This document shows positions 1 to 55,213 of a DNA stretch of 64,000 bases, in pieces (position 1 is the first letter of the stretch; the number at the start of each line of letters is the position of its first letter). Source of the DNA: Cyanidioschyzon merolae (lineage: Eukaryota); assembly GCA_000091205.1 (NCBI GenBank), contig AP006499.2, one strand, 5' to 3'. The notes under the pieces were generated by a model. It ran no database searches, was not told the origin of the DNA, and was given only the letters and a program-made list of their open reading frames with translations. Position numbers and translations under genes: made by a program.

Positions 1-77
1 CGTTCATTACATCGCCTGCAGGTGGCTTTTTACGGCGCGCTCTCGAACGTCAACTAGCGGACGACTGGAATGATTAC

Positions 78-944
78 ATGCAATCGATGCTGGACGCTGT
101 GGAGAGGCGCCTCTGGCCTGCGGTATTCCGAGAGAAGGATCAGGCCGTTGCACCTACGGGGCAAGCTGAAACCAGTGGGATTCGTCATACGACGGTAGAG
201 ACGACAGCGACGCCCGAAGCGTCATGCGTATGCGAGAAGACGTCGGCCGCGGAAACTGGACCTCCTGAAGAAGTATTGGACACAACTGATGTAGTAGTAG
301 TGAAGACGAAGAACGGTTCGGCAAGTCGTCGGCATCGTTCGGGACCGCGTTTGACGGCAGCAACTGAAGAGAATCGACGTCGCCTGTCGCAGATTATGAC
401 CCATCTGCGTCTGCGGCACTGGCGAGCGATCCTTGGACTCGTACCTGTTTTAGCGCTCTTTTACGCTCGAGTTGTCCTGGCGGTCGCTTGGCGAGTCCTC
501 GAACGACTTGGATTTGATCTGGGAATGCTTTTGATGCTGGGATGGCGGGCACTTGGAAACCTGCGACCACTAGCGTTAGTTAGCAGGGATCGCTCTGCTC
601 AGGAAACGTCCCCATTGATGGACGGTTCTGCAGCAGACACCGACAATGGTCTACGTGCTGCAGCAAAGCGATCACACATCACGAATGCTGCTGGCAACGG
701 CGCTGCAGAAGCGCAGACGCTCGGTAGCGATATCGTTCCCAGCACCTTGAACGGACGCGTTGCCGAGGATCGCCAAGTCACCGATACTGCGCGGAGCCGG
801 TCCAATGGGGTAGCCAACTCCACGAAATACGCACCAAACGGCGTGCAGCTGCAGCGTGCCTCAACAAGAGGCCGCCGCCGCAGCGGCGCTGTGCCGGACA
901 CCAGCACCGCGGACGACAACGACAACGAGCGCAAGCGGTCATGA
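78..944 (+). CDS. hypothetical protein with two predicted TM helices (AILGLVPVLALFYARVVLAVAW, GFDLGMLLMLGW); no recognised domain
   Basis: 288-aa ORF that begins after an in-frame stop at 54-56. It has a hydrophobic core flanked by low-complexity S/T/R-rich sequence. Confidence 0.25.
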   Translation: MQSMLDAVERRLWPAVFREKDQAVAPTGQAETSGIRHTTVETTATPEASCVCEKTSAAETGPPEEVLDTTDVVVVKTKNGSASRRHRSGPRLTAATEENRRRLSQIMTHLRLRHWRAILGLVPVLALFYARVVLAVAWRVLERLGFDLGMLLMLGWRALGNLRPLALVSRDRSAQETSPLMDGSAADTDNGLRAAAKRSHITNAAGNGAAEAQTLGSDIVPSTLNGRVAEDRQVTDTARSRSNGVANSTKYAPNGVQLQRASTRGRRRSGAVPDTSTADDNDNERKRS

Positions 945-1465
945 CATACGCGGTCGATGCATGTCGCCGCTGATGTTCCAGCTACATCTTCATCGTGTAG
1001 CTGAGGGCAAATCTTGTACTCCATAAAGCGAAGGGGTATCGAGCTCGCCCTAGACTTGTTTTATGTGGACCGAGAACAGCACGGCCACGTACAAGTTGTG
1101 TCTGTTGGCAGCGTGCCGCAGCAGCGTACGACGCTGCCTGGCCATTTTTTGCATCGCTGGACGAGTTCCGCGGCTGGGTAGCTGACGGCCTCCGTTCCTA
1201 TTGCGGCCGCAGGAAACAGCGAACACGCCTATGCCGCGAATAGCATTGCTTCGCGGATTTCGTGGTCGACACGGTGATTCAGCGTATTGCTTAACTAGGA
1301 ACAGATGACTCGTTGAACTGCAAGCGCTCGAATGCTGAACATGTAGAGACGGTTGCCTGTGCAAGCTGCCTGATCTAGTGTGCAACCACGAGCAGTACGC
1401 ATTAGGCGGTTTGAGTCGGTGTTCCGGACCTACAATATCGGTTGCTGTCAGCTGCACTGAGAACA

Positions 1466-1822
1466 CGCTTCCAACTGCATCCTTACATGATCAGAGGATG
1501 CTGGCGATAGAGCGCTTGCGATTGTGCATGCTTCCCGCCAAATGTGCTGCACGCATCGATCCAACAGACAGCACATACGCCGAACGCTTCCAACTGCATC
1601 CTTACATGATCAGAGGATGCTGGCGATAGAGCGCTTGCGATTGTGCATGCTTCCCGCCAAATGTGCTGCACGCATCGATCCAACAGACAGCACATACGCC
1701 GAACGCTTCCAACTGCATCCTTACATGATCAGAGGATGCTGGCGATAGAGCGCTTGCGATTGTGCATGCTTCCCGCCAAATGTGCTGCACGCATCGATCC
1801 AACAGACAGCACATACGCCGAA
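1466..1822. repeat. tandem minisatellite, 119-bp unit x ~3 (near-identical)
   Basis: The unit cgcttccaactgcatccttacatgatcagaggatgctggcgatagagcg... recurs at 1466, 1585 and 1704. It produces the repeated 70-83 aa ORFs in the ORF track. Confidence 0.9.
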
Positions 1823-1847
1823 AGCGCTGCGTCGATCCGTGTACGTT

Positions 1848-4800
1848 TCACGTAGATGAGCGCATCGCAGGTGCGCCCTCACCTAGAAGTAGACGGAGCT
1901 GCTCAAAGTCGCTTGGATCGTTGACAAGCCTTTGCAGCTCCGTCTGAATTTGTTGGAGTTCTACGGAATGCTGCGGTTGGCGGGCAATCAGAGCAAGACG
2001 GTAGTATCGTTTCATCTGTTGGAAAATTAGCGAAAAGGTACGATCACCGACTCGAGCACGAATGCGTTCCATGATCGTTTTGCTGATCATTTGAGAGCCA
2101 CGTGCAAGAGCTGCATCCTTGTGCACAGCGGATACAGCTCGACGCTCGGCTTTCGCCTTCCAGACCAAGCCTGGTTCAGCGGTCGACGTCGACGAGACGG
2201 CCGTGGCGGCCACGTTGGTCTCGCGGAGTCTTTTCGACGACTGCGATGACAACGATAGCGAGCGCGCTCGCCGTGCATCGCATGTTCCCGTTTTTCCTGC
2301 CTGATCATACTCTTGGGACTGTCGCCCGATCATAGCTGCATGTTGCGCCATCGACTGGAGACGCGGTTGCTCGTCCTTGCTCGCCTGAAACGGATCAACA
2401 GGTGTGCGAACTGGCGGTACCGAGGTTGCGAGTTCCAACTGCGCCGCTGAGAGTTGGCGAATTCGCTCCGAGTGCCAGAAGCCGCACAGATTCGACATGA
2501 AGGTTCCAAAGCGCTCAAAAACTTGGATATTGTGCGTTGCTCGCGGATCCGCATCCGATGAAGCTGCACTCAGCCAGCGCGGGAGGTCTCTCAGATGAGC
2601 TCGAAACCGCTCGTCACAGAGGAGAATCGCTCCAAAGTCCTGCGCGTGACGAATCACCCGACCCATGGCCTGGTTTGCTGCTCGTAGGCATTGCTGCACG
2701 TACCAGAGGCGACCAGTGATCGTCTTGCCGTGATCCCTGAGGTGAAGCGCCTGACGTTCCAGATAATCGCGTTTCAGGATGATGCGCGGATCTGTTGTCG
2801 AAGGAAACGGAAGACCGACTAGAATCACCGTTCGTCCAAAGTCGTCAGCGAAATCGATCCCCTCGCCGGTGCGTCCTCGACAAACCGCGAAGAGGCATGC
2901 GTCGCGGCCGCTGGAAATCCATTGGCGGTAGGCGTCCACGGTTTGCCGAGAGGCGTCAGCGTCGCGAGGCTCCATAAAGATGCGCTTCACGGCATTGAGA
3001 CGATCCCAGACAGTCGCCTGGGTAGGCTGACGGCCACGATGAGCGGGATTCAACGGGTTGTTGTGATGAAAGGCGCCCGTCTGCCAGATTTCTACGAACC
3101 GAGCGAGCAGCACATAGGACGGAAAGAAGACGAGCATGCCACGCGGTGAGACGCGAGCGATATTGACCAGCGCGCTACCGAGATCCGAGATATACTCGCG
3201 ATTGTGTCGATTCGCATACGAGCTGTTCAGTTGAATATCCCGCGGCCCTTTGGTAAGGATCCCCGCGAATACCTGAGTTGCTGGATCGACGACATGGGAG
3301 TTCTGGAGACGAACTGGAAACGAAGCACCCATCTCCGATGCAACGGATTCTAGGGGGCTCAGCGTCCCTGAGGTCAACAGCACTGCATGTGCATTCGAGG
3401 TGGCTCGACGGAGCGCGAGACCCGGCCAAAGGCACCAGAATGAGAGCGTGTATCCTGTAGAGGAGCGATGTTCACGTGCGGATTGGTGTACGTACTTGCC
3501 AGAGGCAGCCTCTGCCGCTGCGGTGCCGCTCAAGGGTGGGCGCTGCTGCGACGGTGTTTGCCTCGGCCATCCGACACCATCGTACGCGGAGGGCGTCTTC
3601 AGACGACTGGGATTCATCGCCTGGTGGGTAGTACCAGCGGTGCCCTTCGCCGGCTCGTGCACACAGATCGCGAACGTGGACGCCGTCTCTGGTTTCCCGA
3701 ACAGACGAGATAGCTCCAGCACCTGACTGAGCTGCTCTAGCGCGTGCACCTGAGCGGCCCATGCTGCCGCTGACGTGCGCTGTGTAGTCCGTACTTGTCG
3801 GTGAAGCAGCCCCGTATAAGGATCACCCTGATCCCGTGTCTCTATGGCATCTGCTTCCGGCGCCTGTGAATGATCGAGCGCAGCAGCGGTCCCGTCAGGG
3901 AATTGTTGCCGCAATTGTGTGAGTGCACGGATCGCCGCTTCTACGCCGCGGAGCAGACGCTCATACGCTTCCTCGGTGAGCGTTGCGTCTTTCGAAGAGC
4001 ACTGCAAAAATGATTCAATAGCATGACCAGGAAGCACCACGCCATCAATCCCTTCAATCCGACGCCGCTGCCCAAAACACACCGTGCCTCCATTCTCTGC
4101 ACCAGGGCGCGCATGAGACGCCTTGGCGTCCGCCTGGGAAACCAGCGATATGCGCTCTTCAAGTGCGACCATGATTTCGAGCAGAGCGTGGAGATCAGAC
4201 GCGTGTAGCGCGGGCTCCGTGTTGGATCCTTCGCGCCCGTCGCGGTTCAGAAGACCCGAGGATAGCGCACTTGCCAATTGCTGAATAGCGCTGACGCACC
4301 TTTGACGCTCCGCAGCGGTAAAATCGAAGCTGAGACTATCACAGCAGATGCTCTCCAGATTGTGTGCCTCGTCGCCGATGATGATATCGCCTTCGACGCT
4401 GAGCCCCAGCGAACGCCGACACTTGCCATCGAACAAATAATTGTAGGGCATGAAGATGATTTCGGCCTCGGCAGATGCCTCACGACTGAGAAAATAAGGG
4501 CACATCGCATGCTGATGCCCGTACGCTGCCAAGTCCTCGAGGTCTCGTGGGCGCCGTCCCGGAAGCGCTAGCGTCGAGGTGCTGTCGACGGCGATGAAGA
4601 AAAAGTCATCGCCAACCTCCTTGAACTTTTGTTCGGCATTCAGATAAAAGCTGCAGCGTCGCTCTTTAGTCAACTGGGTACAACGAACGTTCTGCATTGT
4701 GGCGTTTTCGAGTCGAGATACAACCGGGTGGACGCAGAGGTGCTGGCGGGAGCCGAGGACCACGGTCCGAACGCTCGCACCATATGCGGTTCTGCTGAGC

Positions 4801-5699: not shown

Positions 5700-7376
5700 T
5701 CACCAGCACCACCACCGCCTATCACACGGACGATGCCGCCCGTGTACAGTAGTGGCGAGAAACCCGCCCTGGACAAAACGTCTCCAACCGAGGTGCAGAC
5801 GTCTCCTAGTCCTTTTGGACCGGCCATCTACTACTGCTTCCAACGTTGTCTCATATAGTTCGACTTTGAGAGGTTGTCCCAAAAAATTCTCTCTTGTCGA
5901 CTCTGGAGGTCTCGTCTCCAGCACCGCACATTTCCTTGTATTGATTGCGGCGTTAAAGTCTCGGTTCACGAATTCCATACGTTTCTCCCCGTTGGTAGTT
6001 GTGCTTACTAGTGCGCCTAGTCCTCGAACTTTCGCCCTCCTTTCCGTTTGCTCCTCCGTCAGCGCTCCGTACTTTTTTATATCCTCAGGGGTCCGTTGGC
6101 ACTTTTCCATCTCCACGCTCTGAAGTGTACACCCCAGTTCATGGTGTGTATGCAATGCTCGGAACTCATCTACAGGTATTGTAACAAAACACCTCGCGCA
6201 CTCCTTGGATGTTCTTGTCGTTGGAGCTGGCGTAGTTCCTTTTTGTATCTTCCGGCGCCCTGCTCCATATGCCACTACGAGCCTCTGATTTTCATCCTCT
6301 TTCAGGGCACTCAACTCATTGAAAAAGTCCGCGAACGCCCGCTGCCTCCCACCGTACAGATTCATCCGCAAACGAGCCCGCCGGGGCTTGGTATACTCCT
6401 CCCACAGCGCATCCCAATGGGCAACACGAACTTCCATGAATTTCCGAAAAGCTTCAAAGTCGGCTCTTCGGCTGGTCACCTCGCTCAAAGCCTCCAGGTG
6501 ATCCTTCATTCCTGCGTTCCACTTCTCAGTTTTCTTCCTCGCATTCATCATTCCCGATTCTCGACAGTATCTCGCTCTCGAGAACCTCAAAAGACGCATG
6601 TCTTTCTGACGGAAGTTGCCGTCAGCACCATCTTCCGCACGCTTCGGTGCTGCGATGGTGATGATATTTGTGTTTCGGGGGTCCGCGCCAACGACAAGGT
6701 CGTTATCCTGCACTTTCTGCGTCTCAAGACTCGCCTCCTTCTTTTCTTCATGCTTCATCGCGTCAACGACAAGCACGTTATCCTGCACTTTCTGCGTCGC
6801 ATGTTCCGCCTCCTTCTCATCTTCATACTTCGTCACGCCAACGACAAGGTCGTTATCCTCCATCTCCTGCATCGCAGGATCCCCCTCTTTGTTTTCTTCA
6901 TCCTTCGTCACGGGCGCAGCCGAGGGCCGAACTGGACGATCTTTCTTCAACCGCCGATAGTGTATACACAAGGCTACTCCATCGGTTTCGATCAACCCAG
7001 TGAACCACTTTTGCTCGCTCACTCTCAGACGTTTGAAATTGAAGATATTCTTCCAGTACGTCTCCCGGTTTTCGCCGGTGAAGTCCTCCCTGCTAACATT
7101 GAACTCCGGACTGATCTCCTTCATGATGCCGTAGAGGACGCCGGAATCGATAGTCACGAAATGTGACTTGATATTGCACATTGGAACGATGTTGAAGCGC
7201 TTCCCCATTAGGAAAGCCTTCCGTCTCTCCCACTCTTCATTTTTGTCCTCACTTAGCTCCACCTCTGCCTTGCGTTCGAGTTCTCGGTCCAGAAACACAA
7301 AATAGCGCAGGATGAGGCGATAGTATCTTTCCTTATCTTTTTTATCTCTGATATCTTGTCTGCTGGATTCGCCCAC
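5700..7376 (-). CDS. TnpB/Fanzor-like RNA-guided-endonuclease-family protein (RuvC-like nuclease with Zn-finger); probably the 3' exon/major part of a longer gene
   Basis: RuvC-I-like motif [17 protein letters not shown] Cys/His cluster follows: CARCF...HTHHELGC...EKCQ. The RuvC-III hallmark is [15 protein letters not shown] (D-x-NAA-x-N). The N-terminus is K/R-rich ([13 protein letters not shown]-like). Upstream ORFs on the same strand in alternating frames (7253-7633, 7618-7812, 7870-8181) suggest extra exons or frameshifts. Confidence 0.6.
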
Positions 7377-8200
7377 CCGAGTACCGCACGGTGCTCTTGT
7401 ATAACCGCACGGATTACAGAAGCTTCATTCGTGCTGCCGTTTGATATCCTCATGTCCACAAATTCGACCTCATCTTCATATCTGCGATCGTTCGTGATGC
7501 CATTGATAATCGCCCATATCCCCTTGCAAGAGATACCCCCGTACAGCGCAAACACGGCGCGTATCATGAAACGTTCGAGGTTCATTGTCAAAAGGTTCTT
7601 CAGGTTCGTGATATACTTCATCGCTCCGTACATGTAAATACCCCGGTCACCCTTGTATCGAGTACCCTCGAACCCGTAAAAGGGATGTCGTTCGTGGAGC
7701 GCGTGAACCCGCCCATTTTACCCCGCGTTTCCTCTGCACCAAACACCAGGTGCCGAATAAAGGTCTTGTCAAAGAACTCGTCTGGAATCTCGACTGTTTC
7801 CACGTGCGCCACGTCTTCTTACATCTCGCGCACCAAATTCATCAGTCTTGACGACACCTTTATAATACTCTAGGAGTACAGATCGACATGCTGTCTGATG
7901 TCGTCTTGCAACTTTTGCTCATCCGAATCCTCGAGGTGTCCATGAGGGCGGGTTACCACTACCGTCCCGTCATAGTCTCGTGTTTCGTGCAGCTTCTGAC
8001 GCCGGGCCTCCCCTTTTGCTTCCGTGTCTTTTCCTGTTCCTCTGCACTTGGCAGTGTTTCTCTTTTTTTTCTGGCAGCCGGCGACACTGCGCCTCCAGGA
8101 TCCTTCATTTCTATGTCCATAACTTTCCTTTGCTATGTTTTTGAAAAAGAACGCATTTTGAACGCTTCCGTTATAAACCACGTAAAATCACTTGAATACA
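5830..8200 (-). mobile_element. putative Fanzor/TnpB-carrying transposable element (approximate bounds)
   Basis: The TnpB-like ORF lies in an AT-richer island (about 7400-8450). DNA and protein homology to the second copy (53125-53950) ends abruptly near 5830-5865, which would be the putative right end. The left bound is uncertain. Confidence 0.35.
6690..6925 (-). repeat. in-frame coding tandem repeat (~78-81 bp x3) inside the Fanzor-like ORF
   Basis: The DNA unit caacgacaag[g/c][t/a]cgttatcct... recurs at ~6690, 6773 and 6846. It encodes ...[11 protein letters not shown]... three times. The last copy is the RuvC-I strand itself. Confidence 0.7.
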
Positions 8201-8605
8201 CTCATGTGAAGATTGAAACACAATTGAATTTAAAGATTATATTATGCTACGACTTGAACGCAAATACAACTTGTGCGTTAGAGCAATACGCTATTGATAA
8301 GGATCGCGTTTCCCTTCAACGGCGAGGTACGCGTCGTATCTCATACCTGCCTGATCTGAAAGTGGGCTTATCGACTGCGCTATTGAAAAAAAGAACAGAG
8401 ACTAGCCCCTATATAGCAACGAAATAACATTTTCTTCTCCCTTCAACGATAAACGTTAAAAGGCGGGAAAGGTTTCCATTTTGTCGAAACTTTACCTTCT
8501 TGGCGGAAGATCTCGCGAGCCGGACGAGTATGCCTGGCGGGTGCTTCATGCTCCCGCACTAGCGGGTGCCGTAGTGAGATCTTGGCAGCTCGTCCGAAAC
8601 CCAAT

Positions 8606-8888
8606 TTTTATTGGAATAGGACTAGAAGTGGACAGCTCTCATCCAAGTGTCGCCTTGGTCGCAGTGATCGCTTATAGTGACCCTTTGCGCGGCCGCACGC
8701 AGAAGCTCTGTCTGCGATAATTGCTGGCTCCCAGATTGATAACGAAACCTGATCCCGTGTCGCGCAAACCACGCCTCTAGTCGACGCCCCCAGTGGTATG
8801 GCAAAACCTTTCTGTCCCCGTGATGCATCCACACAAGCGGTTTAGGCGCTGTAGCGGGTGCTCAGCGCCGGCACTCGGCACACAATAG
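8606..8888 (+). repeat. ~280-bp dispersed non-coding element, copy 1 (candidate ncRNA gene or TE terminus)
   Basis: About 75% identical over its full length to 42343-42618 in the same orientation. Shared blocks are tttatt..aggactagaagtgg, tcatcca.gtgtcg, tggtcgcag, gctggctcccaga.tgataa, cgacgccc..cag.ggt.tggca and gcgggt.ctca. No protein-level conservation was seen in any frame. Confidence 0.65.
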
Positions 8889-9346
8889 ATCGTAAAAAAA
8901 CTACCCGTACATCCGAGAGACATTATAAATAATGGAACATGGGAGTAGGGTTCTCCAGCATGATGAACGCTCTCTCGATTACCAGTACCCATCCATCCCG
9001 CGATTTTAGATCCACGGTCAACGAAAACGTCTTGTGAGCGGAGAGCGGAGCGCCGCGCGGTACGCGCTCCACCGCGCGCCCGTTGATGATCGCGAGCGCG
9101 CCGGTGCGCCGCGCACTGCACCAACGACCGCACAATGCTCACGTCCGCGTTGGATTGTCTGGGTGTTTGTTTTCTTTGCAGTGACGAGGAGGCATACGGG
9201 TTTGCGCTTACAAGTCTAGCGCTCACCGCAAGCACTGGTGGCTGCGTGAGGGCGCAGACGAAATCGGGTGGTTTTTTACCGACAGAAGCGCATTTGATCG
9301 GGGCTGGAACGCTGCGCTGCTTGCGTGTGCTCGTGCCGCTCGTACG

Positions 9347-11611
9347 ATGGCGGCAGTTCGGACGGCAGGGGAACAGTTTGCTCTAGCATCCTGGGTTGCT
9401 GGCGTCCGGGCATTGTCGAGCACGAGCATCGCTTGCGGAGAGGGAGCTACTGGTGGCAATGGGGCCCAGCGCAATCCGCTACAGCGCTGCAGCGCCTCAA
9501 CCGCAGCACGGATGCGATTTGCAGGCACGTTGGACGCCACGAGTGATACATGCAACTCAGATAAGGTCCGTTTGGGAGTAGCTGATGCCAGGCACCTTGA
9601 GCTTGCGTTCGGAGTGCACGTTATGGAGACGAAAACTCTGGTCCGTTCAGCAGCTGCTGCAGGCTCAAGGTGCCCGCTGCAGCCCCTACTGCTGCAGACG
9701 CACTCTACGCGGTTCGAGCATAGATCTATGGCCCTAAATCCGCGCTGGATGATGCCGTTCACTGCGCCACGGAGTCGTAGTCGAAGCCTAGGATGCGCGC
9801 CTAGCCGTCGCTGTAGACTCGTTTGTGCAGGCGTGGATGACCCGATCGGGAAGAGAGCGCGTCAAGAGGACGCATTTAGTGCATCTATCCCGGGTTCACG
9901 ACTTGATGGCGAAAGGCAGCAATCAAGTTCGAATGTGTCGTCAGACGGCTCAGCGCTAGCATATACTGGCGCTTCGTCGGCAGTGGTGCTCGAAGGCGCG
10001 AATCCGCAGTTAGATGCGAAATATCGGCACTGGCGGGTGCGCGTCTTCTACTCCATCTTTCTCGGTTACGCTTTCTTCTACTTTACGCGTAACTCCTTCA
10101 CGTACACGGCACCGGCGCTACGAGCAGCACTGGGGCTTTCACTCGAACAGCTTGGCGTCATCATGTCCGTGTTCCCGTTAGCATACGGCTTCTCTAAGCT
10201 GTTTCTGGGTATCGCAGCGGATCGATTTTCCAGCCGTGTCTTCATGGCGCTTGGGATCTCGCTCACCGGTCTGGTGAATATTTTCTTTGGATTGCAGTCG
10301 AATGTATACGCGATGACAGCGCTCTGGTTCTTAAATGGGATTTTTCAAGGCAGTGGCGCAGCGCCATGTGCGAAGCTGCTCACTCGCTGGTACAGCAAAA
10401 ATGAGCGAGGAACCTGGTGGGGCCTCTGGAATACCTCCCACAATACTGGCGGATTCTTCATTCCATTGATTGTGGGGTACAGCGTCAAGAGGTTTGGGTG
10501 GCGGTATGGCATGATTGTGCCAGGTGTCTTGGGAATCCTCATGGGCATTTTCCTACTGAACAGGCTGCGTGATTGCCCTGAGGAGGTCGGCCTGCCGCCC
10601 ATTGAAATCTACCGCGATGATCACGCCGAAGATGTTCAGCGAAGGAGCACCGCTGCAACCCGTTCAACGAGTCCCAACGGTGCAGCACCGGGCTCGTCGT
10701 CGTCGCCTGCGAATGCGGAAACCCCAAAGACCGCGGGCAAATCAGCATCCGCACGGGAGCAGGCCGCAACGAACAAGTTCTTAGAAGTCATCGGTAATCC
10801 GTATGTGCTGCTGCTAGCGATCAGTTACTTTTTCATCTACTTTTGTCGCCAGGGCATCAGTTCATGGACCGTTATTTACCTGACGAGCATGGGCGTGCCG
10901 CCACAAGAAGCGGCTTTACGTGTCGGTAGCATGGAGATTGGCGGACTCTGTGGCTCCCTGGTCAGTGGTGCAGTCAGTGATCGGCTTGCTCGCGGCCGCC
11001 GCATTCCCGTCATTCTCTTCTGGATGCTGGGTGTGGTGGCGGCGCTCGTGGCCATGTGGCTCTCGCCCGCCTCTCGGCGCTACTTGTCCATGCTCTGCAT
11101 CTTCACGTTCGGCTTTTTCATTTACGGCCCACAGATGCTCGTCGGCCTGGCCGCAAGCGAAATGGTCAGCCCGGACTCGGTGTCGTCGACCATCGGGTTT
11201 CTCGGTTGGATCGCTTACATAGGCGCAGCAACCAGTGGATACCCGCTGACGCGCATTGTATCTGCGTTGGGCTGGGATGCGTATTTCGCAGCGCTTATCT
11301 GTTGTGCCTGTATTGCTATTCTCCTGCTTTTGCCGATGTGGCGAATTGGTGAACGTCAGGCCAAAGCGATCGCTCGCAAATGGCGAGCGCTTGTCGCGGG
11401 TGCAGCGGCGAACTTTCAAGCACTGCATGTGCAAGACGATGGCCAGTACGTCGACTGTGAAGCGTGTGCGGGAGCAGGCACACGCCTCCGCATGGAATGT
11501 GGCCCTGCAACACCCGCTCAAACAGTTTCCTGTAAGCTCGTGGAAACGCCGTGTGAAAAGTGCTTCGGTACCGGAAGCATTCGGCTTCCTGCGGAAGATG
11601 CAACCCGTTGA
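9347..11611 (+). CDS. MFS sugar-phosphate/glycerol-3-phosphate transporter (GlpT/UhpC/SLC37-like) with a long N-terminal extension and a C-terminal CxxCxGxG zinc-finger pair
   Basis: The core reads YRHWRVRVFYSIFLGYAFFYFTRNSFTYTAPAL...GVIMSVFPLAYGFSKLFLGIAADRFSSRVFMALGISLTGLVNIFFG, with about 12 TM helices. The C-terminal tail carries CEACAGAG and CEKCFGTG. The first ~220 aa are R/S/A-rich and non-conserved, so the start codon is uncertain. Confidence 0.8.
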   Translation: MAAVRTAGEQFALASWVAGVRALSSTSIACGEGATGGNGAQRNPLQRCSASTAARMRFAGTLDATSDTCNSDKVRLGVADARHLELAFGVHVMETKTLVRSAAAAGSRCPLQPLLLQTHSTRFEHRSMALNPRWMMPFTAPRSRSRSLGCAPSRRCRLVCAGVDDPIGKRARQEDAFSASIPGSRLDGERQQSSSNVSSDGSALAYTGASSAVVLEGANPQLDAKYRHWRVRVFYSIFLGYAFFYFTRNSFTYTAPALRAALGLSLEQLGVIMSVFPLAYGFSKLFLGIAADRFSSRVFMALGISLTGLVNIFFGLQSNVYAMTALWFLNGIFQGSGAAPCAKLLTRWYSKNERGTWWGLWNTSHNTGGFFIPLIVGYSVKRFGWRYGMIVPGVLGILMGIFLLNRLRDCPEEVGLPPIEIYRDDHAEDVQRRSTAATRSTSPNGAAPGSSSSPANAETPKTAGKSASAREQAATNKFLEVIGNPYVLLLAISYFFIYFCRQGISSWTVIYLTSMGVPPQEAALRVGSMEIGGLCGSLVSGAVSDRLARGRRIPVILFWMLGVVAALVAMWLSPASRRYLSMLCIFTFGFFIYGPQMLVGLAASEMVSPDSVSSTIGFLGWIAYIGAATSGYPLTRIVSALGWDAYFAALICCACIAILLLLPMWRIGERQAKAIARKWRALVAGAAANFQALHVQDDGQYVDCEACAGAGTRLRMECGPATPAQTVSCKLVETPCEKCFGTGSIRLPAEDATR

Positions 11612-14539: not shown

Positions 14540-15150
14540 GAGGTCCTCGTAGCGGTGACACTTGTCAGGTTTTCCTGTATACCCACAGTAGCTCCTTATG
14601 CTTCGAGGCCGCCCTGTGGCGTATGAAGCCCTGCGTCATCGCTCGGTACTTAACCTTGAAGGGTACCGAAGACTCTCCTCGACGTCATCCTGCGTTACCG
14701 CGCCCGATAGCGTACAATACGATCAGGGGCTTCCTCTGGGCGAGCCCTTCAGCTATCACACTGTCTGCTTCACGAGCAAGCGAACGCTGTTCGATTCAAC
14801 GGAGGATTTCTGGAACGCGATGCTCTCCTTGATGAAACGAGAACCAGAAGGAACATCCAGGCTGGGGAACAGTTCGAGAAACGTCGAGCCGTCTAGACTC
14901 GCTTGCTGCGAAGCGACGATGCACGCCCCATTAGAAGAGAGCCTCGGGATGGTTCGAGTTCGAGTCCAAGACACTTGGATCGAAACCGAAGAGACGAAAG
15001 CCCCCCAAAGCATATCCCGCGACATGTATCGCGCTGCCTTCGGATTGCGTTCCTTCGATGGCCACAACGAAAGCAGGATATACCTTTCGAGCGAAATCGA
15101 TTGCTTGACGTGAAAAGTTCTGGGATGCATCAGCACGAGCGTATGTGCAA
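14540..15150 (+). repeat. ~600-bp dispersed repeat, copy A (inverted partner at 21180-21790)
   Basis: ccttgatgaaacgagaaccagaaggaacatccaggctgg aligns with the reverse complement of 21430-21470 (ccttgatgaaacgagtaccggaaggcaaatccgagctgg). Homology is traceable from gtagcggtgacacttg to ctttcgagcgaaatcgattgcttgacgtgaaaag. Long ORFs are open on both strands but no domain was recognised. Confidence 0.65.
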
Positions 15151-15229
15151 ATCGTGAAGAGACGGCGTGGAGTCTCTCTCTGTATATGCAGCGTCGCGCA
15201 GCGCTGCGCCCATGCTTTTTCTTAAAACC

Positions 15230-15390
15230 GAAAGATCGAAAACTTGAAGCAATCTGTATGTAAGGAAAGGAGAACCGTGGATGCTTTTTTCTACGGACTG
15301 GATAATCATATCGGTTCTGGTACAAACTTCTATTCGAGGGTGTCTCGAAACATCGTGATTCCGGTGACTTGGCGAATTCCAGCGGCAAAA
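15230..15390 (+). repeat. ~190-bp dispersed element family, copy A
   Basis: It shares ordered blocks with 32465-32645 and 46570-46755: gaaagat(c/t)gaaaacttgaag, ggaaagg/gagaa..cgtggat(g/a)c, ..ggat(a/t)..gg, and ..gaattccagcggcaa / gcattccagcggcagcac / gaattctagcggcaac. Confidence 0.6.
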
Positions 15391-16141
15391 TGTCGAAGAA
15401 TCCACTACATAACGACGACCGGGAACCCAAAAACACCATATGAACCCTTAGTCCCTCATTGCTACACCATAACGATCATGGCAGTGGATCTAAAATGGTT
15501 CATAAATGAATGGAAAGCTACGAACCGAGCGCGGAGTTCAATGTTCCGATTTTTATCTGACACTGGAGTATCGAGATGCGGAAGGTTTTGCTTAACAACA
15601 CAGTACGCGCTGTCTTGTAATTTCAACGTGCTTGGGCATGCCTCTTTGACGCATTCGAGCACCAACGAAAGACGCATTTCATTCCTTCTTGATGAAGAAT
15701 ATCGTACCGAAACGATCTGTATCAAAATGACCGATAACGTATCCTGAGGCCGTGTCCAGTTGCGAACGGGCGCTGTCATGGCCCCGAGCCTGTGCACTTC
15801 GTGCTGCTGCGAATACGCAGCTTCTAGAGCACGCCGTGCCTATGCCCGAAGCACCATTCAAAGACGCTCTATTGAGTGGACCCAAGTCCGTGTGAAGGAC
15901 CTGCCGATGATCAGGGAACGCGCCTGACTGGTAGCACAAGGGCTCCTGGCACACGGCTTGGCTGTTGCGGTTTGGCGAGCTTTTCCCAGTTCGAACAGTG
16001 CGTCTGTGAATAGGTCGCTCAAGCGTCGATCACGTTGAATTTCTGTTGCTGACCCCAAACGAAAGCTTTGTAAAGGAGAGGAGCGCGAAAGGTGCCGCTC
16101 GGGAGCTTGTCTTGCGAACAAACACGAGAACCTTTCCAAAC

Positions 16142-21179: not shown

Positions 21180-21790
21180 ATAGGCTCACGCTGAAAGATT
21201 CATGAACATTTCAGATCGAGGAGTCGATTGCTCTCGAAAGGCGAATCCTCATCTGTTTGACGCCATCGATGATACGGTACTCTAAAGCAACATGCTACCT
21301 GTAATGGTATAGGTTCCCAAGCACTTGCACATCTTTTGCATGCACGAAACCGGATACTGGACACGGATTTAAGGCATCGCTGGAATCGCATCCACTGGAG
21401 AGCGCGTTACCGCTTTGCCGGATGCGAGCGTAGAGGCATCGAAATTGCTCGATTTGATTTCCAGCTCGGATTTGCCTTCCGGTACTCGTTTCATCAAGGC
21501 CAAGATCGCTTTCCGCAAAACCTCTATCGAAGGACTTGCGTGCTCTTGCGTGTGCAGCGTACAGAGTACTCACGTTGTGCATCGCCCAGAACAAGTCTAT
21601 GATCGTAGGATACGTCACCGGGTAAAGAAATAGAGACGGACTTTGAAGCGATCCTTTTGTGCGCGTCAAGAGCAAGTGCCGGGCGACGAAACAAGGGTTC
21701 ACACCTCCAGCAAGGCGCACAGAGGCCGAGGCACAGTGAACGTACGAGAACACGTGTCTGTTTTCAAGCGTCACCGTACCGAAGGTCGTA
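21180..21790 (-). repeat. ~600-bp dispersed repeat, copy B (inverted relative to copy A)
   Basis: See copy A. The reverse complement of 21181-21240 (ctttcgagagcaatcgactcctcgatctgaaatgttcatgaatc...) aligns with 15082-15140. Confidence 0.65.
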
Positions 21791-30960: not shown

Positions 30961-31610
30961 GTCGTCTGGTCACCAGCACTGTGTTTGTTGGTATGCTCAT
31001 ACAAGCGACGTTCCATACGAAGCCCATTTGGCTACCAGAAATGAATACAACTGAAACATGGAACGCGCAGTCGTAGCTAGACGCAAGTGGAGCGTCAAGA
31101 ACAAGTTCTTTCAATCGTAGTAGTGAACGCGGGTGCTTTGGTTTGTGCGCATATGTTAGGCTGTTTTTGTTTTCGTGGCGGAAGCGTTTTCGGGAGGAAG
31201 CAGCTTGCTCCATCGACAACATCGAGTCGAAAGTCACGATGAATGAAAGACCGCAGGTGCGGTCATCAGGATGACGTCTCAGCGTCCTTCGCGCACGCCT
31301 CCGAGAACAATGTGTCTGGCATAGCATCGCAGCACTGAAGCAGTTTGATGGGCACCCATGTAAGAAGGTAATGGAACGGATCCATTTCTCTAACTCGGAC
31401 GTGCACGCTGAAATTTGTGTCTCTTCCAAGGATCAGCAGCACCAGACGATGCGGACTTTTTTTTCTGCGACTGCATCGTTTTCTACTCCCATATCTCGAG
31501 ATGAGAAAACGCCGGTTATTCCTTTCGCTAACAGCTGCGCTGTCAGCAATGGAAGCGTGTTGACGGCAGTGTTCAAGTCCCAACTTTGCTACGATCGGCT
31601 GTTTTCCATG

Positions 31611-31893
31611 TCATTCCCGCACAGGTACAAGTTGCGATCTACGCTGTGCTCGATACACTCATCTGTTTCGTATACAGGCTCGTCATTCCCGCACAGGTAC
31701 AAGTTGCGATCTACGCTGTACTCGATACACTCATCTGTTTCGTATACAGGCTCGTCATTCCCGCACAGGTACAAGTTGCGATCTACGCTGTACTCGATAC
31801 ACTCATCTGTTTCGTATACAGGCTCGTCATTCCCGCACAGGTACAAGTTGCGATCTACGCTGTACTCGATACACTCATCTGTTTCGTATACAG
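31611..31893. repeat. tandem minisatellite, 72-bp unit x ~3.9 (near-identical)
   Basis: The unit tcattcccgcacaggtacaagttgcgatctacgctgt(g/a)ctcgatacactcatctgtttcgtatacaggctcg recurs at 31611, 31683, 31755 and 31827. Confidence 0.9.
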
Positions 31894-32464
31894 CCTCAGC
31901 GCGCGCTTTGCACTGTCGACCCTTGGCTGCGGTCAGGTGTTTCCGCGTGTCCATCACAGCATCTCCTCGTTCTACGAGCGCCTCGGTATACCACGTGAAC
32001 GCTTGGTTCATCACTCGGTACATGCTCTTCAACGGTACTTCAGGCTCCTCCGATGCCCTTTACCGTATCCGCTCCCGGTACCGTACCGTGGAGTCATGGA
32101 CGAGTGCGGCTGCGGGTTTCTCCGGGCGATGCCCCTGGTGAGTACGCTGCTCGCTGGTTACGCAAGAGTACGCTCTTCCATTCGATCAAGCATTTGCAGA
32201 TAGAAGAATCATCCATGATGGAACAAATCCGGGAAGGAAATACAGGTTTGGAGAACACCTCAAGAACGTTTGATCTGCGTACGCGCCCAACGAGCAACAA
32301 ATAGACGCGTTTCTGTCTCTCTCGAAGGGAATCAATCATGGGACGTCAAGAGGTCAGTGAACTTTCGGATTCCGCTCTTGAAGAATTCGTGAAAAGATAA
32401 TGACGAGAGTTTATCGTCGTCGATCCAAGGGCGCGAATCACGGCATCCACAAGATGCCGTGAAA

Positions 32465-40578: not shown

Positions 40579-42342
40579 GCGAGCTCGTAGAAACAGCTTC
40601 TCCCACCGACTACCGGTATCCGAGACACTGCAAGCCGTTCCGCGGGCGTAGCAAGCCGGTACCCATACCTAGTCGCTGCAACAACTGAAGCTGCTCGCTC
40701 TGATACCAGATCCAGCAAAGGGATGACGTGTTGCACTGGGATGCCTCAAGCGCCCTATTCCCGACGCGGGTATCCATGCACCGGGGCTTGCTGCTGGAGC
40801 AAAAAGTCGTTTACAGACTATCATATCATAGAAGGCTCCAAAGAGAGCACCATCTCGCTTTATGATCTTTGACGGCAGTGAAGCTTTGCAACCAGCGGGG
40901 TGCAGTCCGCTCCGATTTGATGATTTTTTGCTGGTGGACAGAAAGTGTGAACCTCTTGCGCACTTGAGTATGGTCTCCTCGCGTTACATAGGCAGCCCGG
41001 TGTGAAACATGAGGTCCTGAACGGGCTCCCAAGCACTGTCACACTCGCCAATGGACACACTCGGCTTCCGAGGTACCGCGCATGCCTCACACTGGGCGAC
41101 ATCGAAACGTCGCCGAAAACGAACCCCTCGAGGAACGGTTTTTGGTACTCGCCCCAGAGTCGATGCATCCAGCTGGGCGTGCCGGGAGGCGCAACTGCAG
41201 CCGCAACCGCCAACGTCTATTGGAGGTCATCCTGAACCCGTTCACGGGAATCCACTGGACCATGCAAGGCCCGCGAGATGAAGCAGGTTCGGTGTATAAA
41301 CTGCGCGGTTCTAGGCGTTGAGGAGCGCTCGCGCCCAGTACCCAGGCACCCGAATGATTTTCCAACCTTCTACTCGGGCCTGTCACGAGCCCCGATGAAA
41401 TCTACGGTAAACTGGATGAATTGATGGCATCCTACGGCTGATGGCATTCGAGCCATAGCTCCATGTGGCCTTGGCGTCTCCGAGTCCGGGACTCGTAGAC
41501 GTGCCTCAGGGCGCTCTTTAGATGCGAATGATAGAAAGCATGTGCTTGCGCGTACACCTGTCGAGAACGGTCCTTTTCGGTTCGTGACTCTCGTTCAATA
41601 AAGGCCGCCGAATAAGAAGCGACATGCAAGCAGCCTCGTGCTCAACAGAGTTTCGGCCGCTGCTACAGCTACTGCTGCTGCTGCACCACGCGAACTTTGA
41701 GCATCGGTGTTTCGTGCACTACTGACGATGCTCTGCGTCTTCACTGCATAAGCCTTAACGACACTATCCATGCTGCTGTTTGAGCTAGGCCCCAGCATCT
41801 CCAAACACGAGCAGATGGGTAGGGGCGTCAAGCACACGTGCACAGCACACTCTCTCTCGAACGTAATTTCCAATGAGATGCCGCCCTTGGTGCTTTAAAC
41901 GAATGCTGCCACATTCCATTTTAAGAGTTATCGACTTGTCTTTCCCATTCGTCCCTCGCAGTGGTAGGATCGATGATGCATCTGACCACTTGATTTGATC
42001 GGAGATTCCAGAGGATCGTGGACAGCAGGCAGCGCGGCTCTCGGAATGCCTGTACGGATATAGTTCAAAGAATTCCATCAAGCCGAGCGAGGGGTAAACG
42101 AGGACCCATCGAGTGAGAGGGACCAAAGGCCGGTGAAAAAGAAACAGAAACTGACCACTAAATACCCATGACCCGATGACATTTTCCCCGCGTCTGTGGA
42201 AAGCGTTGCAAAGGGCGAAGTTTTCCGTTTTTTCGAAGGTTTACCGCCTAGGTGCAAGTTCCTGCGAGCTGAACGAGTCCACTGAGCAGTTGCTCTGTGC
42301 GGCTCGGCAGTGGCGAGGCCGTAGCAACACGTCCACAAAGCA

Positions 42343-42618
42343 TTTATTCTAGGACTAGAAGTGGGTAGCGTTCATCCACGTGTCGTCATGGTCGCAGCGG
42401 TTTCCGAGTCTATCGCTTTGTGCTGCCGCATGTTGTAGGTCTGTCTGCAGAGCTTGCCGGCTCCCAGAATGATAATTAGCCGTGATTCCGTGTCAGGCGT
42501 AGGATTCTGCGAGCCGACGCCCTCAGCGGTGTGGCAGAGCCATTCTGTCTCCATGCAGCATCCGTACCAGCGGTATAAGCACCAGTGCGGGTACTCACAA
42601 TAATCACTCGGCGCATAG
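42343..42618 (+). repeat. ~280-bp dispersed non-coding element, copy 2
   Basis: See 8606-8888: ...tttattctaggactagaagtgggtagcgttcatccacgtgtcgtcatggtcgcag...gctcccagaatgataattagccgtgattccgtgtc... Confidence 0.65.
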
Positions 42619-42967
42619 TAGAACGTACAAAATGACCCGTATATCCGAAAGAGAGTTTCCGTCATGGAACTTAAAGATAGCATGTATCATGATGGACGCT
42701 TTCCCGAATGCCATGATTCATCGCGCAACCTCAGATCCCTGCTCAGTGGACGAATTTTTTGTCATCGAAAAAAGGATTCGCAGATGCCGCTACGAGTTGC
42801 AGCCATTGCCAAGTACAGCCTCGAAAGGCATTGTGCAACTGAACCTAACAGCAGCTTCAGGACGTGTCTTTCTTAAAGACGAACGCTTCGGAATCCAGCA
42901 CGATTTTCGAACCCCATAACGCGTCTGCTTTCTGGGGTTATTAGGAGCTTGCGTTCGCCAGGTTGCG

Positions 42968-44548
42968 GTGCGTTTCGACATGCGTGCTGCACTCGCTTTC
43001 CGAGCGCCGTGTCGGGGACTTGTCGTTCCGTCCTGGGAAGCAACTCGAGGTCGGTGTTTGATTTCGCCACGAAAGTGCCCGTTATCGTTGAGTCGTCGAA
43101 GTGTGGCAGGTTTGGTGAGAACGACTCGCCGTCGGGGTCTGTACGGCTGCACGACGCCCGTGGCACAGTCTCGGGACGGTGCCACTGCACCGACGAGCGC
43201 TCCGGTCTACCCCGGAGTGGACGGCAAACCGAATGTCATTCAAGTCCTGGAATCGAGAGGCCTCATTGACGCGGTGACCTCTACTGATGTGTACGCGGTC
43301 TGTGCCCGACCGGTAGCAGTGTACGTCGGCTTCGATCCGACGGCGGACTCGCTCCACATAGGTAACCTCCTGGGTCTACTGGTTCTGCGTTGGTTCCAAA
43401 AACTGGGGCATCGCCCTGTGGCTATCATTGGCGGTGCAACTGCCCGTATCGGTGACCCGTCAGGCAAGAGCGTTGAACGACCGCTCCTTGCTGCGAGTGT
43501 CATTGAAGAGAATGCCGCACGAATCGCTGAAAACCTGCGGCAAGTGCTGGATTTCAGCGGGGATTCTAGTTCAACGACGGAGCCGCTGGTTCTCAACAAT
43601 TACGACTGGCTTGGCAACATGAGATTACTCGACTTTTTGCGTGACGTAGGGAAGCTCGCGCGAGTCGGGACAATGCTGAGCAAGGAATCCGTTCGTCTTC
43701 GGATGCAGAGCGAAGAGGGTCTCTCATTCACCGAGTTTACGTACCAGCTGCTGCAGGGATACGATTTTGCGTATCTCTATAAAAATCACCAAGTCCTGCT
43801 GCAGGCAGGGGGCTCGGACCAATGGGGCAACATTGTGGCTGGACTCGAGCTCACTCGTAAACTTTACGGGGGCACTGTGCATGGTCTGACGTTTCCACTC
43901 CTTACCAGCAAGGATGGCAAAAAGTTGGGAAAGACAGAGAAGGGCGCTGTATGGCTTTCGCCACAGCGCCTGAGCCCGTACGAATTCTACCAATATCTTG
44001 TCAAAGTAGCAGATGATGATGTTTGCAATTATCTGCGGAAGCTCACATTCCTGCCTCTGGAACAAATCGACGCCCTCGAAAACGACATGCGAAACTCGGA
44101 ACGGAGCGGCTACCAAGCAAATACAGCCCAGAAACTCTTGGCTATGGAAGTCACTCGCATAGTTCACGGCGACAAAGGCGTCGAGACGGCATTAGCTGCC
44201 ACCGCGGTCGCTGCACCCGGGCACGTACCCGGCGGTGAACACACCAACGGTAGCACGCGCTTACGAGCTGATGTGTTAGAAGCGGTCTCCAGCAGTCTAC
44301 CGGGTGCGACGCTTCCCCGCACTGCGCTCGTCGGTGTGCCACTGGTCGATGTTATGGTTCGAGCGGGTCTCCAGAAGAGTAAGGGAGAGGCGCGGCGCCT
44401 CATTGCGAACGGTGGTGCCTACGTCAATGACGAAAAAGTGTCCGACAGTGGGAGAACCATCGAAGCAACAGATTTAATTGAGGGACGACTGCTTCTGCTA
44501 GCGGCTGGCAAGAAAAACAAGATGCTCGTTCGGGTGAGCGATACCTAG
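42968..44548 (+). CDS. tyrosyl-tRNA synthetase, bacterial/organellar type, with an N-terminal targeting peptide
   Basis: The HIGH motif is DSLHIGNLLGL and the KMSKS motif is KKLGKTEKG. GGSDQWGNI is also present. The C-terminal S4 domain reads LVDVMVRAGLQKSKGEARRLIANGGAYVND. The first ~75 aa are R/S-rich. Confidence 0.9.
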   Translation: MRFDMRAALAFRAPCRGLVVPSWEATRGRCLISPRKCPLSLSRRSVAGLVRTTRRRGLYGCTTPVAQSRDGATAPTSAPVYPGVDGKPNVIQVLESRGLIDAVTSTDVYAVCARPVAVYVGFDPTADSLHIGNLLGLLVLRWFQKLGHRPVAIIGGATARIGDPSGKSVERPLLAASVIEENAARIAENLRQVLDFSGDSSSTTEPLVLNNYDWLGNMRLLDFLRDVGKLARVGTMLSKESVRLRMQSEEGLSFTEFTYQLLQGYDFAYLYKNHQVLLQAGGSDQWGNIVAGLELTRKLYGGTVHGLTFPLLTSKDGKKLGKTEKGAVWLSPQRLSPYEFYQYLVKVADDDVCNYLRKLTFLPLEQIDALENDMRNSERSGYQANTAQKLLAMEVTRIVHGDKGVETALAATAVAAPGHVPGGEHTNGSTRLRADVLEAVSSSLPGATLPRTALVGVPLVDVMVRAGLQKSKGEARRLIANGGAYVNDEKVSDSGRTIEATDLIEGRLLLLAAGKKNKMLVRVSDT

Positions 44549-52924: not shown

Positions 52925-53950
52925 TCAAAATTGAGACACGAAGCGACAGGGTGCCAGAAAGCTACGGAACACACCGCGGTTCGTGGAGCGTATCTCCGGG
53001 CGCGCTCGGGCGACACGCGGGGATACGCGACGGTCGTGCAAAATGAATATCCACTCACAGACGCCTCGGGGTCTTTCTTTTTTTGACCAGCCCCCTGCTA
53101 TCGGTATCAGCTTCTCCTTGTAAACCTTGAGCCTGAGAGGTATTCCAATAAAGTTCGATGTCGTCAGCTCCTCAGGTCTCGTCTGCAGCACCGCACATTG
53201 TCTGATATTGATAGCAGCGTTAAAGTACTGCTGTACGAACTCCGCGCGCTTCGTACCGCTGCTTGATCTCACCGTGGCGGGGGTTCCTCGAACTCGTGCC
53301 TTTTGTTCCATTTGGCGCTTTGTCGGCTCTCTGTACTTCCGATCGGCGAAGCGCTCCGCTGGCTTAGCTCCGTTTGGACCGTTTGGAGAGGGCACCCCAG
53401 CTCATCCCTTAATTTTCTAAAATGAATACACTTGTTTATGCCGCTAGGTGAAGACCTTCCTGGAGCGAGAAGGACTTGGGGAAGAAAGACGACATATGTC
53501 TCCGTGGAACCATGTGGTAAACGCTTCAGTGCTTCGCCCGCTGGTGCCATCATTACGTTGCAAGATAGAAATTACTCTTTCGATCGGGTTGAGCCATGGA
53601 GGATACGTAGTAATGAAAAGCAGCTCTACTCCCCGGTAGAATCGGCAAAAACTCGATGGTTAGGGGAATGGTCAATGGCCATGTTCTGTAATTGAAGGTC
53701 GTCACCAGATGTCATGGGAAACGACTTCAGTGCTTCGAAGAAGTCGGGGCTGTTGTACGAGCCTTCGCTACGAGCGAAACGGATGCCGCCAAATGAATCC
53801 ATTGTAGCTAGAACAGATGATGATGTTGTCGTTGTCTTCAAGTTCGATTGCACATACAACGTGCTCCCTTTTCTGCGAGTACCCATATACGCTCCCGAGG
53901 TTGCGTCCGAAGGAAATCTCATCGACTGAAAAAACAAACCGATATCCTTT
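52925..53950 (-). pseudogene. decayed second copy of the TnpB/Fanzor-like gene (frameshifted; RuvC-III Asp lost)
   Basis: ORF 52925-53395 reads EFVQQYFNAAINIRQCAVLQTRPEELTTSNFIGIPLRLKVYKEKL. Copy 1 has [46 protein letters not shown] at the same place. The upstream frame 53269-53553 carries RDELGCPLQTVQTELSQRS, matching [19 protein letters not shown]. It sits in an AT-rich island at 53400-54500. DNA homology between the copies ends near 53125. Confidence 0.5.
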
Positions 53951-55213
53951 GCCTCAAAGTAATCGCGACGTTCCAGGAACGCTGTCGATTCGATTTCGTT
54001 GCCAGAGAGCCGTGACTGAAATCCGACTTGTTTACGAACTGTATCCCAGTGAATTCAGGGTCACACGAAGCAGCTGTTCAGAAACAGAGATGGCCATTGC
54101 GGCTGCAAGCTTCCCTTTTGCCGTCCGTAAGGTGCTCAACGGGTCGTTTTGTACCATGGACCGCAAGCAGTCTTTGAGCATATCGGTTTCCGGCACCGAG
54201 CGCATGTACTTCTTCGTCTCAGTGTTACTCAACCATCAGCGTCCCGTTGTATACTTGACCTCAATGCGGAATGCAGTCCTCCATGCACTGTTCAGTCAAG
54301 AATCTAGGTCGTCCACGATTTATACGGATACATTGCATCGTGATTTCGACTTTCTCCTACACACTGCCAAAAAAAGCATTCGATTACACGCAGCTGGAAT
54401 GGAACAAAACTGAGCTGAAGTTTTTGTAACGACGCCAGTACTTCATTGGAACGCTGACAAAAAAGCATTCTTCCTTTGGTCAGAACGGTACTTGTGGTGC
54501 GGGTGTACGGGCATCACCCGCTATTTTAGGTTGCATGCTTTCGCTCAAAAATAAACGCTATACCAGGAAAAGCAACACATATGACCAGCCTTGCATCGTC
54601 AGAAACGCTCGCAACAGACATTTTGCGTGTGTCGGGCGCCTCGTTTGATACGCACCGTTGACTCGAACTCGAGCCTGCTCTTGATGATTGCCTTTGACAC
54701 GAAGTCCCGAGTGTCCCAGTGATGGGCAAGGTGCGTAGAAACGGTGCACGCTCCGTCTAGGCGAGTAGATGCTCGTGCGTAGTCACGGCATTGCAGACCG
54801 GATGTCGTTGAGCAGGTTCCTCTCAGGACCGAGAACGACACGCCTGCTTGGCGGAAAATGCTTTCACAGACTGTTGACGATGTCACAGCGGAATCCAGCT
54901 CCGACCGATATAGATACATGATCGCTCCTAGAACGGGAGCAGAGGCATGAACCGAGACTGCTCGTGATCTCGTTCTGTTTTCAAGTGCGTGCCACCCCGT
55001 TCGCCCGAGGTTTCCTATCTCCATCTCGCTGCCTAACTTGCTGCAGTTGGCGACCTCGTCCCACTATCTATTATCATGAGACCTCTACCTATCATCCAAG
55101 CGGTATTCCCATTTCTCCATGAGAGCGTCGCCTTTAGCGGACAGCGTCGCCATGAACGATTGTTCCAGAATTACTTGCGTCCTCTTTACGATTGCATATC
55201 CATGTTCATCAGG

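Follow-up and report, generated by a model that had tools for sequence, protein, structure and literature searches.

Two stretches of similar sequence, at positions 8606-8888 and 42343-42618 of the window (the whole 64-kb stretch of DNA analysed here), raise the question of what such a conserved element might be: a structured RNA, as the earlier note on this DNA had proposed, the terminus of a transposon, which it had also considered, or a regulatory sequence of the adjacent genes. The TyrRS encoded in the window is identical to that of Cyanidioschyzon merolae 10D (BAM82156.1), and several JGI and ENA metagenome contigs were found to represent the same species at ~99.4% identity. The two segments are almost certainly copies, now decayed, of the 5′ module (~636 bp) that belongs to the CMe-1A / TE-N2_CMe transposon family. 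The module and its relation to these two elements are already known, and the main value of this study is a clean negative, the candidate 'novel ncRNA' being a transposon module published in 2013.

Extent and pattern of the homology

MAFFT alignment showed the two segments to be homologous, non-coding, in the same orientation and sited between host genes. Self-blastn of the 64-kb window agreed with this, returning a single match of 8384-8938 to 42134-42670 with 66.7% identity (E=1e-36), and the pair reported earlier can thus be regarded as real. Its measurements required correction. The identity of ~75% claimed for the pair was found to be 69.3% in the gapless 280-bp core (8614-8893 / 42347-42626), in which 44 transitions and 42 transversions separate the copies, and the homology is not confined to the ~280 bp then described, as the full unit covers about 630-650 bp (8390-9040 and 42138-42767) and reaches past the previous limits on both sides.

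The conservation had also been described as block-wise. When the match/mismatch string was permuted, the longest identical run (15, against a null of 13.1±3.1; P=0.27) and the number of identical runs of at least 9 (four, against 3.0; P=0.35) were both at chance level, so that the apparent blocks are what a uniform identity of 69% yields. One of the supposedly perfect blocks, gctggctcccaga, reads gccggctcccaga in copy 2 and is thus one base off, only ggctcccaga being common to the two. Copy 2 by itself contains a perfect 13-nt inverted repeat, GTCCACTGAGCAG / CTGCTCAGTGGAC, at 42277-42289 / 42739-42751, which is absent from copy 1 and from the other copies and is not terminal.

The element was said to be present twice, which holds for the window itself and falls short of the family, since five additional loci came to light. 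When the spurious minus-strand ORF over copy 1 (8777-9235) served as the query of an exhaustive HMMER search, four weakly similar ORFs were returned on metagenome contigs, and the contigs of all four (L023, L024, L025-27 and L028) each bear a copy of the module; several of these match the profile end to end. Seven module loci were examined in all: the two in the window, L023, L024, L025, L028 and L029. Aligned to the CMe-1A consensus, L023 covers positions 3-907 (80.1%) and L028 positions 12-585 (79.9%), both ending at the end of the contig, L024 is a truncated copy (1-405, 79.3%) and L025 a solo copy (8-619, 78.0%). L029 combines a partial module with a Fanzor unit (84-270 plus 648-3145, 78-89%), and a related locus, L030, lacks the 5′ module (670-3145, 84-87%). 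Pairwise identities among the module copies are star-like, at 58-69% (about 66%). A metagenome scan with the motif GGACTAGAAGTGGN{5,9}TCATCC yielded, apart from six chance matches, nothing but the two window loci, each in several samples, because the pattern is too strict for a family whose members are ~66% alike. A protein search with the ORF of copy 2 returned only itself.

A sequence of ~400 bp, 89% identical between L024 (1047-1442) and L029 (9073-9468) and in opposite orientation relative to the module, breaks or truncates the module in both loci and looks like a younger family nested in the old one.

Relation to CMe-1A and TE-N2_CMe

CMe-1A has been described as a Fanzor1-encoding transposon of C. 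merolae with a consensus of 3,169 bp (Bao & Jurka, 2013, Mob DNA 4:12, PMC3627910, Additional file 2). Its 5′ 635 bp are 95% identical to the whole of a second element, TE-N2_CMe (~635 bp); ~150 copies of CMe-1A and ~70 of TE-N2_CMe were reported, each ~80% identical to its consensus, and both elements lack terminal inverted repeats (TIRs), are unclassified and had no target-site duplications (TSDs) determined (PMC3627910). These copy numbers are literature values, the module-bearing loci examined here being seven. No mention of either family was found in the later papers searched.

Blastn and MAFFT placed window positions 9040 to 5716, on the minus strand, against consensus positions 1-3169, with 84.8% identity over 3,157 aligned nucleotides. 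Copy 1 is the 5′ end of this full-length, pseudogenised CMe-1A. The element begins with the 5′ module that holds copy 1 (8390-9040, minus strand), with consensus position 1 at 9040 and position 636 at 8390 (79% identity). The leader that runs from the module to the Fanzor1 start codon follows at 8121-8389 on the same strand (consensus ~637-905, from the four-locus junction alignment); it is also found in the copies without a complete 5′ module (L029 and L030), with pairwise identities of 71-76%. The degenerate Fanzor1 gene and the 3′ end of the element occupy 5716-8120 (minus strand), at 82-89% to the consensus, whose position 3169 falls at 5716. The earlier suggestion of a transposon terminus, the left end of the Fanzor element, is thus borne out for copy 1, which corresponds to CMe-1A positions 1-636; the gap of ~400 bp said to separate it from the Fanzor-like region disappears, as the two are contiguous and copy 1 is the 5′ end of one transposon.

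Copy 2 lies in a solo module (42138-42767, minus strand) that matches consensus 1-636 only, at 73.8-75%, its homology ending at both of these limits, and tblastn found no Fanzor remnant beside it or beside L025. Judged by the published statement on the 5′ 635 bp and by this exact extent, copy 2 would be a solo insertion of TE-N2_CMe type. Compared by published description, it resembles TE-N2_CMe in being solo, non-coding, free of TIRs and ~75% identical to CMe-1A consensus 1-636. A 3′ fragment without the 5′ module, carrying a Fanzor C-terminus, was located at 53058-53405 (minus strand; consensus 2737-3083, blastn 67.6%), where tblastn with the Fanzor protein gave 47-58% identity. The module ends were also set independently by an alignment of six copies, which defines a unit of ~640 bp outside which similarity drops abruptly. 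No terminal inverted or direct repeats were found at the mapped ends, and no TSDs could be identified in the flanks.

The window copy of CMe-1A agrees with the published element in its host species, its Fanzor1 motifs, its lack of TIRs and its divergence, for which the published value is ~80% identity to the consensus. It differs in being degenerate: frameshifts have occurred, the stop codon is lost, part of the 3′ hairpin is deleted, and a 75-bp tandem repeat within the element has expanded. This repeat (6684-6912, minus strand) consists of three units ~81% alike inside the Fanzor1 ORF (self-blastn, 6684-6837/6759-6912), where they encode repeats in the protein, and the window copy, the consensus, L029 and L030 differ in the number of units. 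The 3′ end of the consensus bears a GCCGCCA...TGGCGGC hairpin and, beyond it, a T-rich tail; the window counterpart is 5716-5790, where the hairpin is partly deleted. It is in this position that a Fanzor guide-RNA scaffold or a signal marking the transposon end would conventionally be expected.

The minus-strand ORF 5700-7376 contains the TnpB/Fanzor RuvC motifs GADP...NTN and RDFNAAIN. An intact relative of 752 aa (P0147) maps to 8016-7723, 7717-7337 and 7343-5877, with 70-75% amino acid identity, and since the reading is spread over three frames the window gene is a pseudogene; in addition, the consensus stop codon TAG reads CAG in the window copy. The ORF has 95 homologous clusters, nearly all of them from the same hot-spring metagenomes. 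A 2025 copy of Pfam-A gave no match to the 5700-7376 protein, and the precomputed annotations of its relatives list only a weak match to PF26935 (DUF8286), which suggests that standard domain scans effectively miss eukaryotic Fanzor1 proteins of this type. The earlier call of a Fanzor-like gene was nevertheless right, given the RuvC motifs and the intact relative.

At the junction, the left end of copy 1 directly abuts the Fanzor unit, and L023 shows the same junction (...TTTTTTCA|ATAGCGCAG... compared with ...TTCTAA|ATAGCGCAC...). L029 and L030 match window positions 8379 to 5707 at 79-85% identity. In L029 a partial module lies ~700 bp upstream of the Fanzor unit, in the same relative orientation, and in L030 the Fanzor unit stands without a module, which indicates that the module and the Fanzor part are separable.

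Constraint on the module and its possible roles

The module is a non-coding sequence with fixed ends, present in multiple dispersed copies and evolving neutrally, which stands either by itself or joined to the 5′ side of the Fanzor part. Within-species population data gave it 1.4-2.6 variable sites per 100 bp, compared with 1.4-1.9 in flanking intergenic DNA and 0.3-0.6 in conserved CDSs; its polymorphism is therefore like that of neutral intergenic DNA and indicates no purifying selection on the element. It may carry 5′ cis-signals for an unclassified, TIR-less transposition mechanism, and it may have been amplified in an old burst, both alone, as a non-autonomous element, and fused to the Fanzor part as CMe-1A. 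The window copies would then be relics that now lack a host function. The pattern resembles that of non-autonomous derivatives of the MITE or SINE kind, in which a short non-coding unit shares a terminus with a longer coding element and reaches tens of copies, although the module lacks TIRs, TSDs, a tRNA/7SL/5S head and a consistent poly-A tail, and is unclassified. Fanzor proteins are RNA-guided nucleases, and given this property the question of how a TIR-less family moved is a legitimate one, but it is not opened by the present finding.

A different arrangement of roles seems improbable: the module would itself be an independently mobile cassette, with the full cis-requirements of an unclassified type of movement free of TIRs and TSDs and with Fanzor1 as a passenger fused to it, or its transcript would serve Fanzor in an unusual role as a 5′-encoded RNA, and its placement near host genes might then reflect promoter-targeted integration. 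Five of the seven copies are head-to-head with a host gene and 80-340 bp from its start codon, which could hint at an insertion preference or at exaptation; by a rough estimate the one-sided binomial probability is ~0.2, which at seven loci is not significant.

That the module serves Fanzor1, as its promoter or 5′UTR or as a 5′-encoded RNA partner conserved for expression or guide-RNA production, is very unlikely. The module is in the same sense as the Fanzor leader and directly upstream of it in the window and in L023, and farther off in L029, and the similarity between the CMe-1A and TE-N2_CMe consensus sequences is high, at 95%, all of which would suit such a role. However, the Fanzor unit of L030 begins at consensus 670 with no module, the intact 752-aa gene of L029 has only a module fragment ~700 bp away, the solo copies have no adjoining Fanzor remnant, and no conserved RNA structure was found. 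Guide RNAs in the TnpB and Fanzor systems characterised so far reportedly overlap the ORF at its 3′ end rather than lying in its 5′ flank. The module, at consensus 1-636, lies upstream of the ORF start at ~906 and hence not at the position of such guides (omega or fRNA), which, together with the lack of conserved structure, makes a guide RNA role unlikely. It is like the omega-RNA and fRNA regions in being non-coding DNA that shares a transposon with a Fanzor gene and is physically linked to it, and unlike them in its 5′ location, its lack of conserved structure and its existence apart from the nuclease gene.

Exaptation as a cis-regulatory module, that is, as a promoter or enhancer of the adjacent host genes (the MFS transporter, TyrRS and others), can be given almost no weight. 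The downstream gene is an MFS_1 transporter (9347-11611) at copy 1 and a bacterial-type organellar TyrRS (42980-44548) at copy 2, which sits in the spacer between adh_short and TyrRS, upstream of the latter. The attraction of this reading lies in the five of seven copies in which a host gene starts 80-340 bp past the module 5′ end in head-to-head arrangement, but this proportion is not significant, the adjacent genes are functionally unrelated, the polymorphism of the module is not reduced, and the orthologous genes of relatives do without it. Three relatives were compared at their orthologous TyrRS loci with the use of blastn, nhmmer and the TE consensus, and no trace of the element was detected in Cyanidiococcus yangmingshanensis (76% TyrRS identity), in a relative at 79% or in Cyanidium caldarium (66%); in the last of these the adh_short-TyrRS spacer is ~320 bp, compared with ~2.4 kb in the window. 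Scans for bacterial-type promoters and terminators were uninformative. Segmental duplication was rejected as the origin of the two copies, tblastx similarity being confined to the element and the flanking host genes being unrelated.

The reading first put forward, a lineage-specific structured ncRNA family (a snoRNA, an SRP/MRP-like RNA or another) present in two paralogous copies, retains scarcely any probability and is effectively refuted. It accords with the non-coding nature of the segments, their common orientation and their position between host genes, and the single sequences do fold with ordinary energies. The Rfam/Infernal-type scan that had been proposed gave no family for either copy: Rfam 15 at the gathering threshold had no matches anywhere in the window, and at E<=10 there were only unrelated sub-threshold matches, none of them common to both copies. 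ARAGORN found no tRNA genes in the segments. Compensatory substitutions in stems, the other check that had been suggested, were not in evidence, as the two-copy SCI (~0.45) and the consensus energy equalled those of column-shuffled controls on both strands, with one of ten tests reaching z=-2.1, and RNAalifold, run on the 668 columns of the six-copy alignment, returned -41 kcal/mol and a covariation term of +2.97, which is a net penalty. Polymorphism at the level of neutral DNA, a block pattern at random expectation and the match to a published transposon 5′ end also stand against it, and Rfam, tRNA, SCI, covariation and constraint analyses thus lend no support to a structured or lineage-specific RNA.

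Other repeat classes were considered for the segments and set aside: a SINE, as there is no tRNA/7SL/5S head with Pol III boxes (ARAGORN none, Rfam none); a solo LTR, as there is no TG...CA, the element-sense ends being CGATGAC... and ...TCTGTTCTTT with flanks that do not match (no TSD); and a MITE, as the hallmarks of TIRs and TSDs were not found.

Spurious reading frames and repeat load

The coding reading was ruled out by three observations. Six-frame translation showed each frame to be interrupted by stops in one copy at least, so that no frame is open in both, and the earlier statement that there is no coding constraint is confirmed; the substitution phase counts (38/31/17) are not codon-like and show no third-position excess; and Pfam gave no match for the ORFs that overlie the module. 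The ORFs 7888-8427 (plus strand, 179 aa) and 8777-9235 (minus strand, 152 aa), which cover the CMe-1A leader and 5′ module, are spurious; the stretch 7888-8385 is highly polymorphic, with 3.0 variable sites per 100 bp. Metagenome annotations list such ORFs as genes (P0139-P0144), and spurious ORFs placed on the module by gene finders could pollute annotations.

CMe-1A-derived DNA (5716-9040, 42138-42767 and 53058-53405) amounts to ~4.3 kb, or 6.7% of the 64-kb window, a share that fits the ~150 and ~70 copies reported for the two families. A TE content of 0.7% is often quoted for C. merolae (PMC8504449); set against the share found in this window, this figure probably understates old, diverged repeats. 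A claim of 72% 'dispersed repeats' in the same species (PMC11050394) was set aside as a statistical PWM construct.

Several other repeats were observed in the window. Beside the CMe-1 3′ fragment, a stretch of ~1 kb outside the CMe-1A consensus (53405-54406) is 69.7% identical to L025 5697-6706, the whole match running from 53151 to 54406 against L025 5697-6961; it probably belongs to a further old repeat family or to a subfamily of CMe-1. A diverged dispersed repeat (64-69% identity) occurs at 14718-15140, at 21411-21607 in inverted orientation, and at L023 2055-2469 beside the module copy; at the first of these sites it overlaps a 227-aa ORF (14756-15439, minus strand) without a Pfam match. 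Two near-perfect tandem repeats were also recorded, one at 1465-1825 (119 bp x3, 99%) and the other at 31610-31897 (72 bp x4, 97-99%) inside the ORF 31371-32141.
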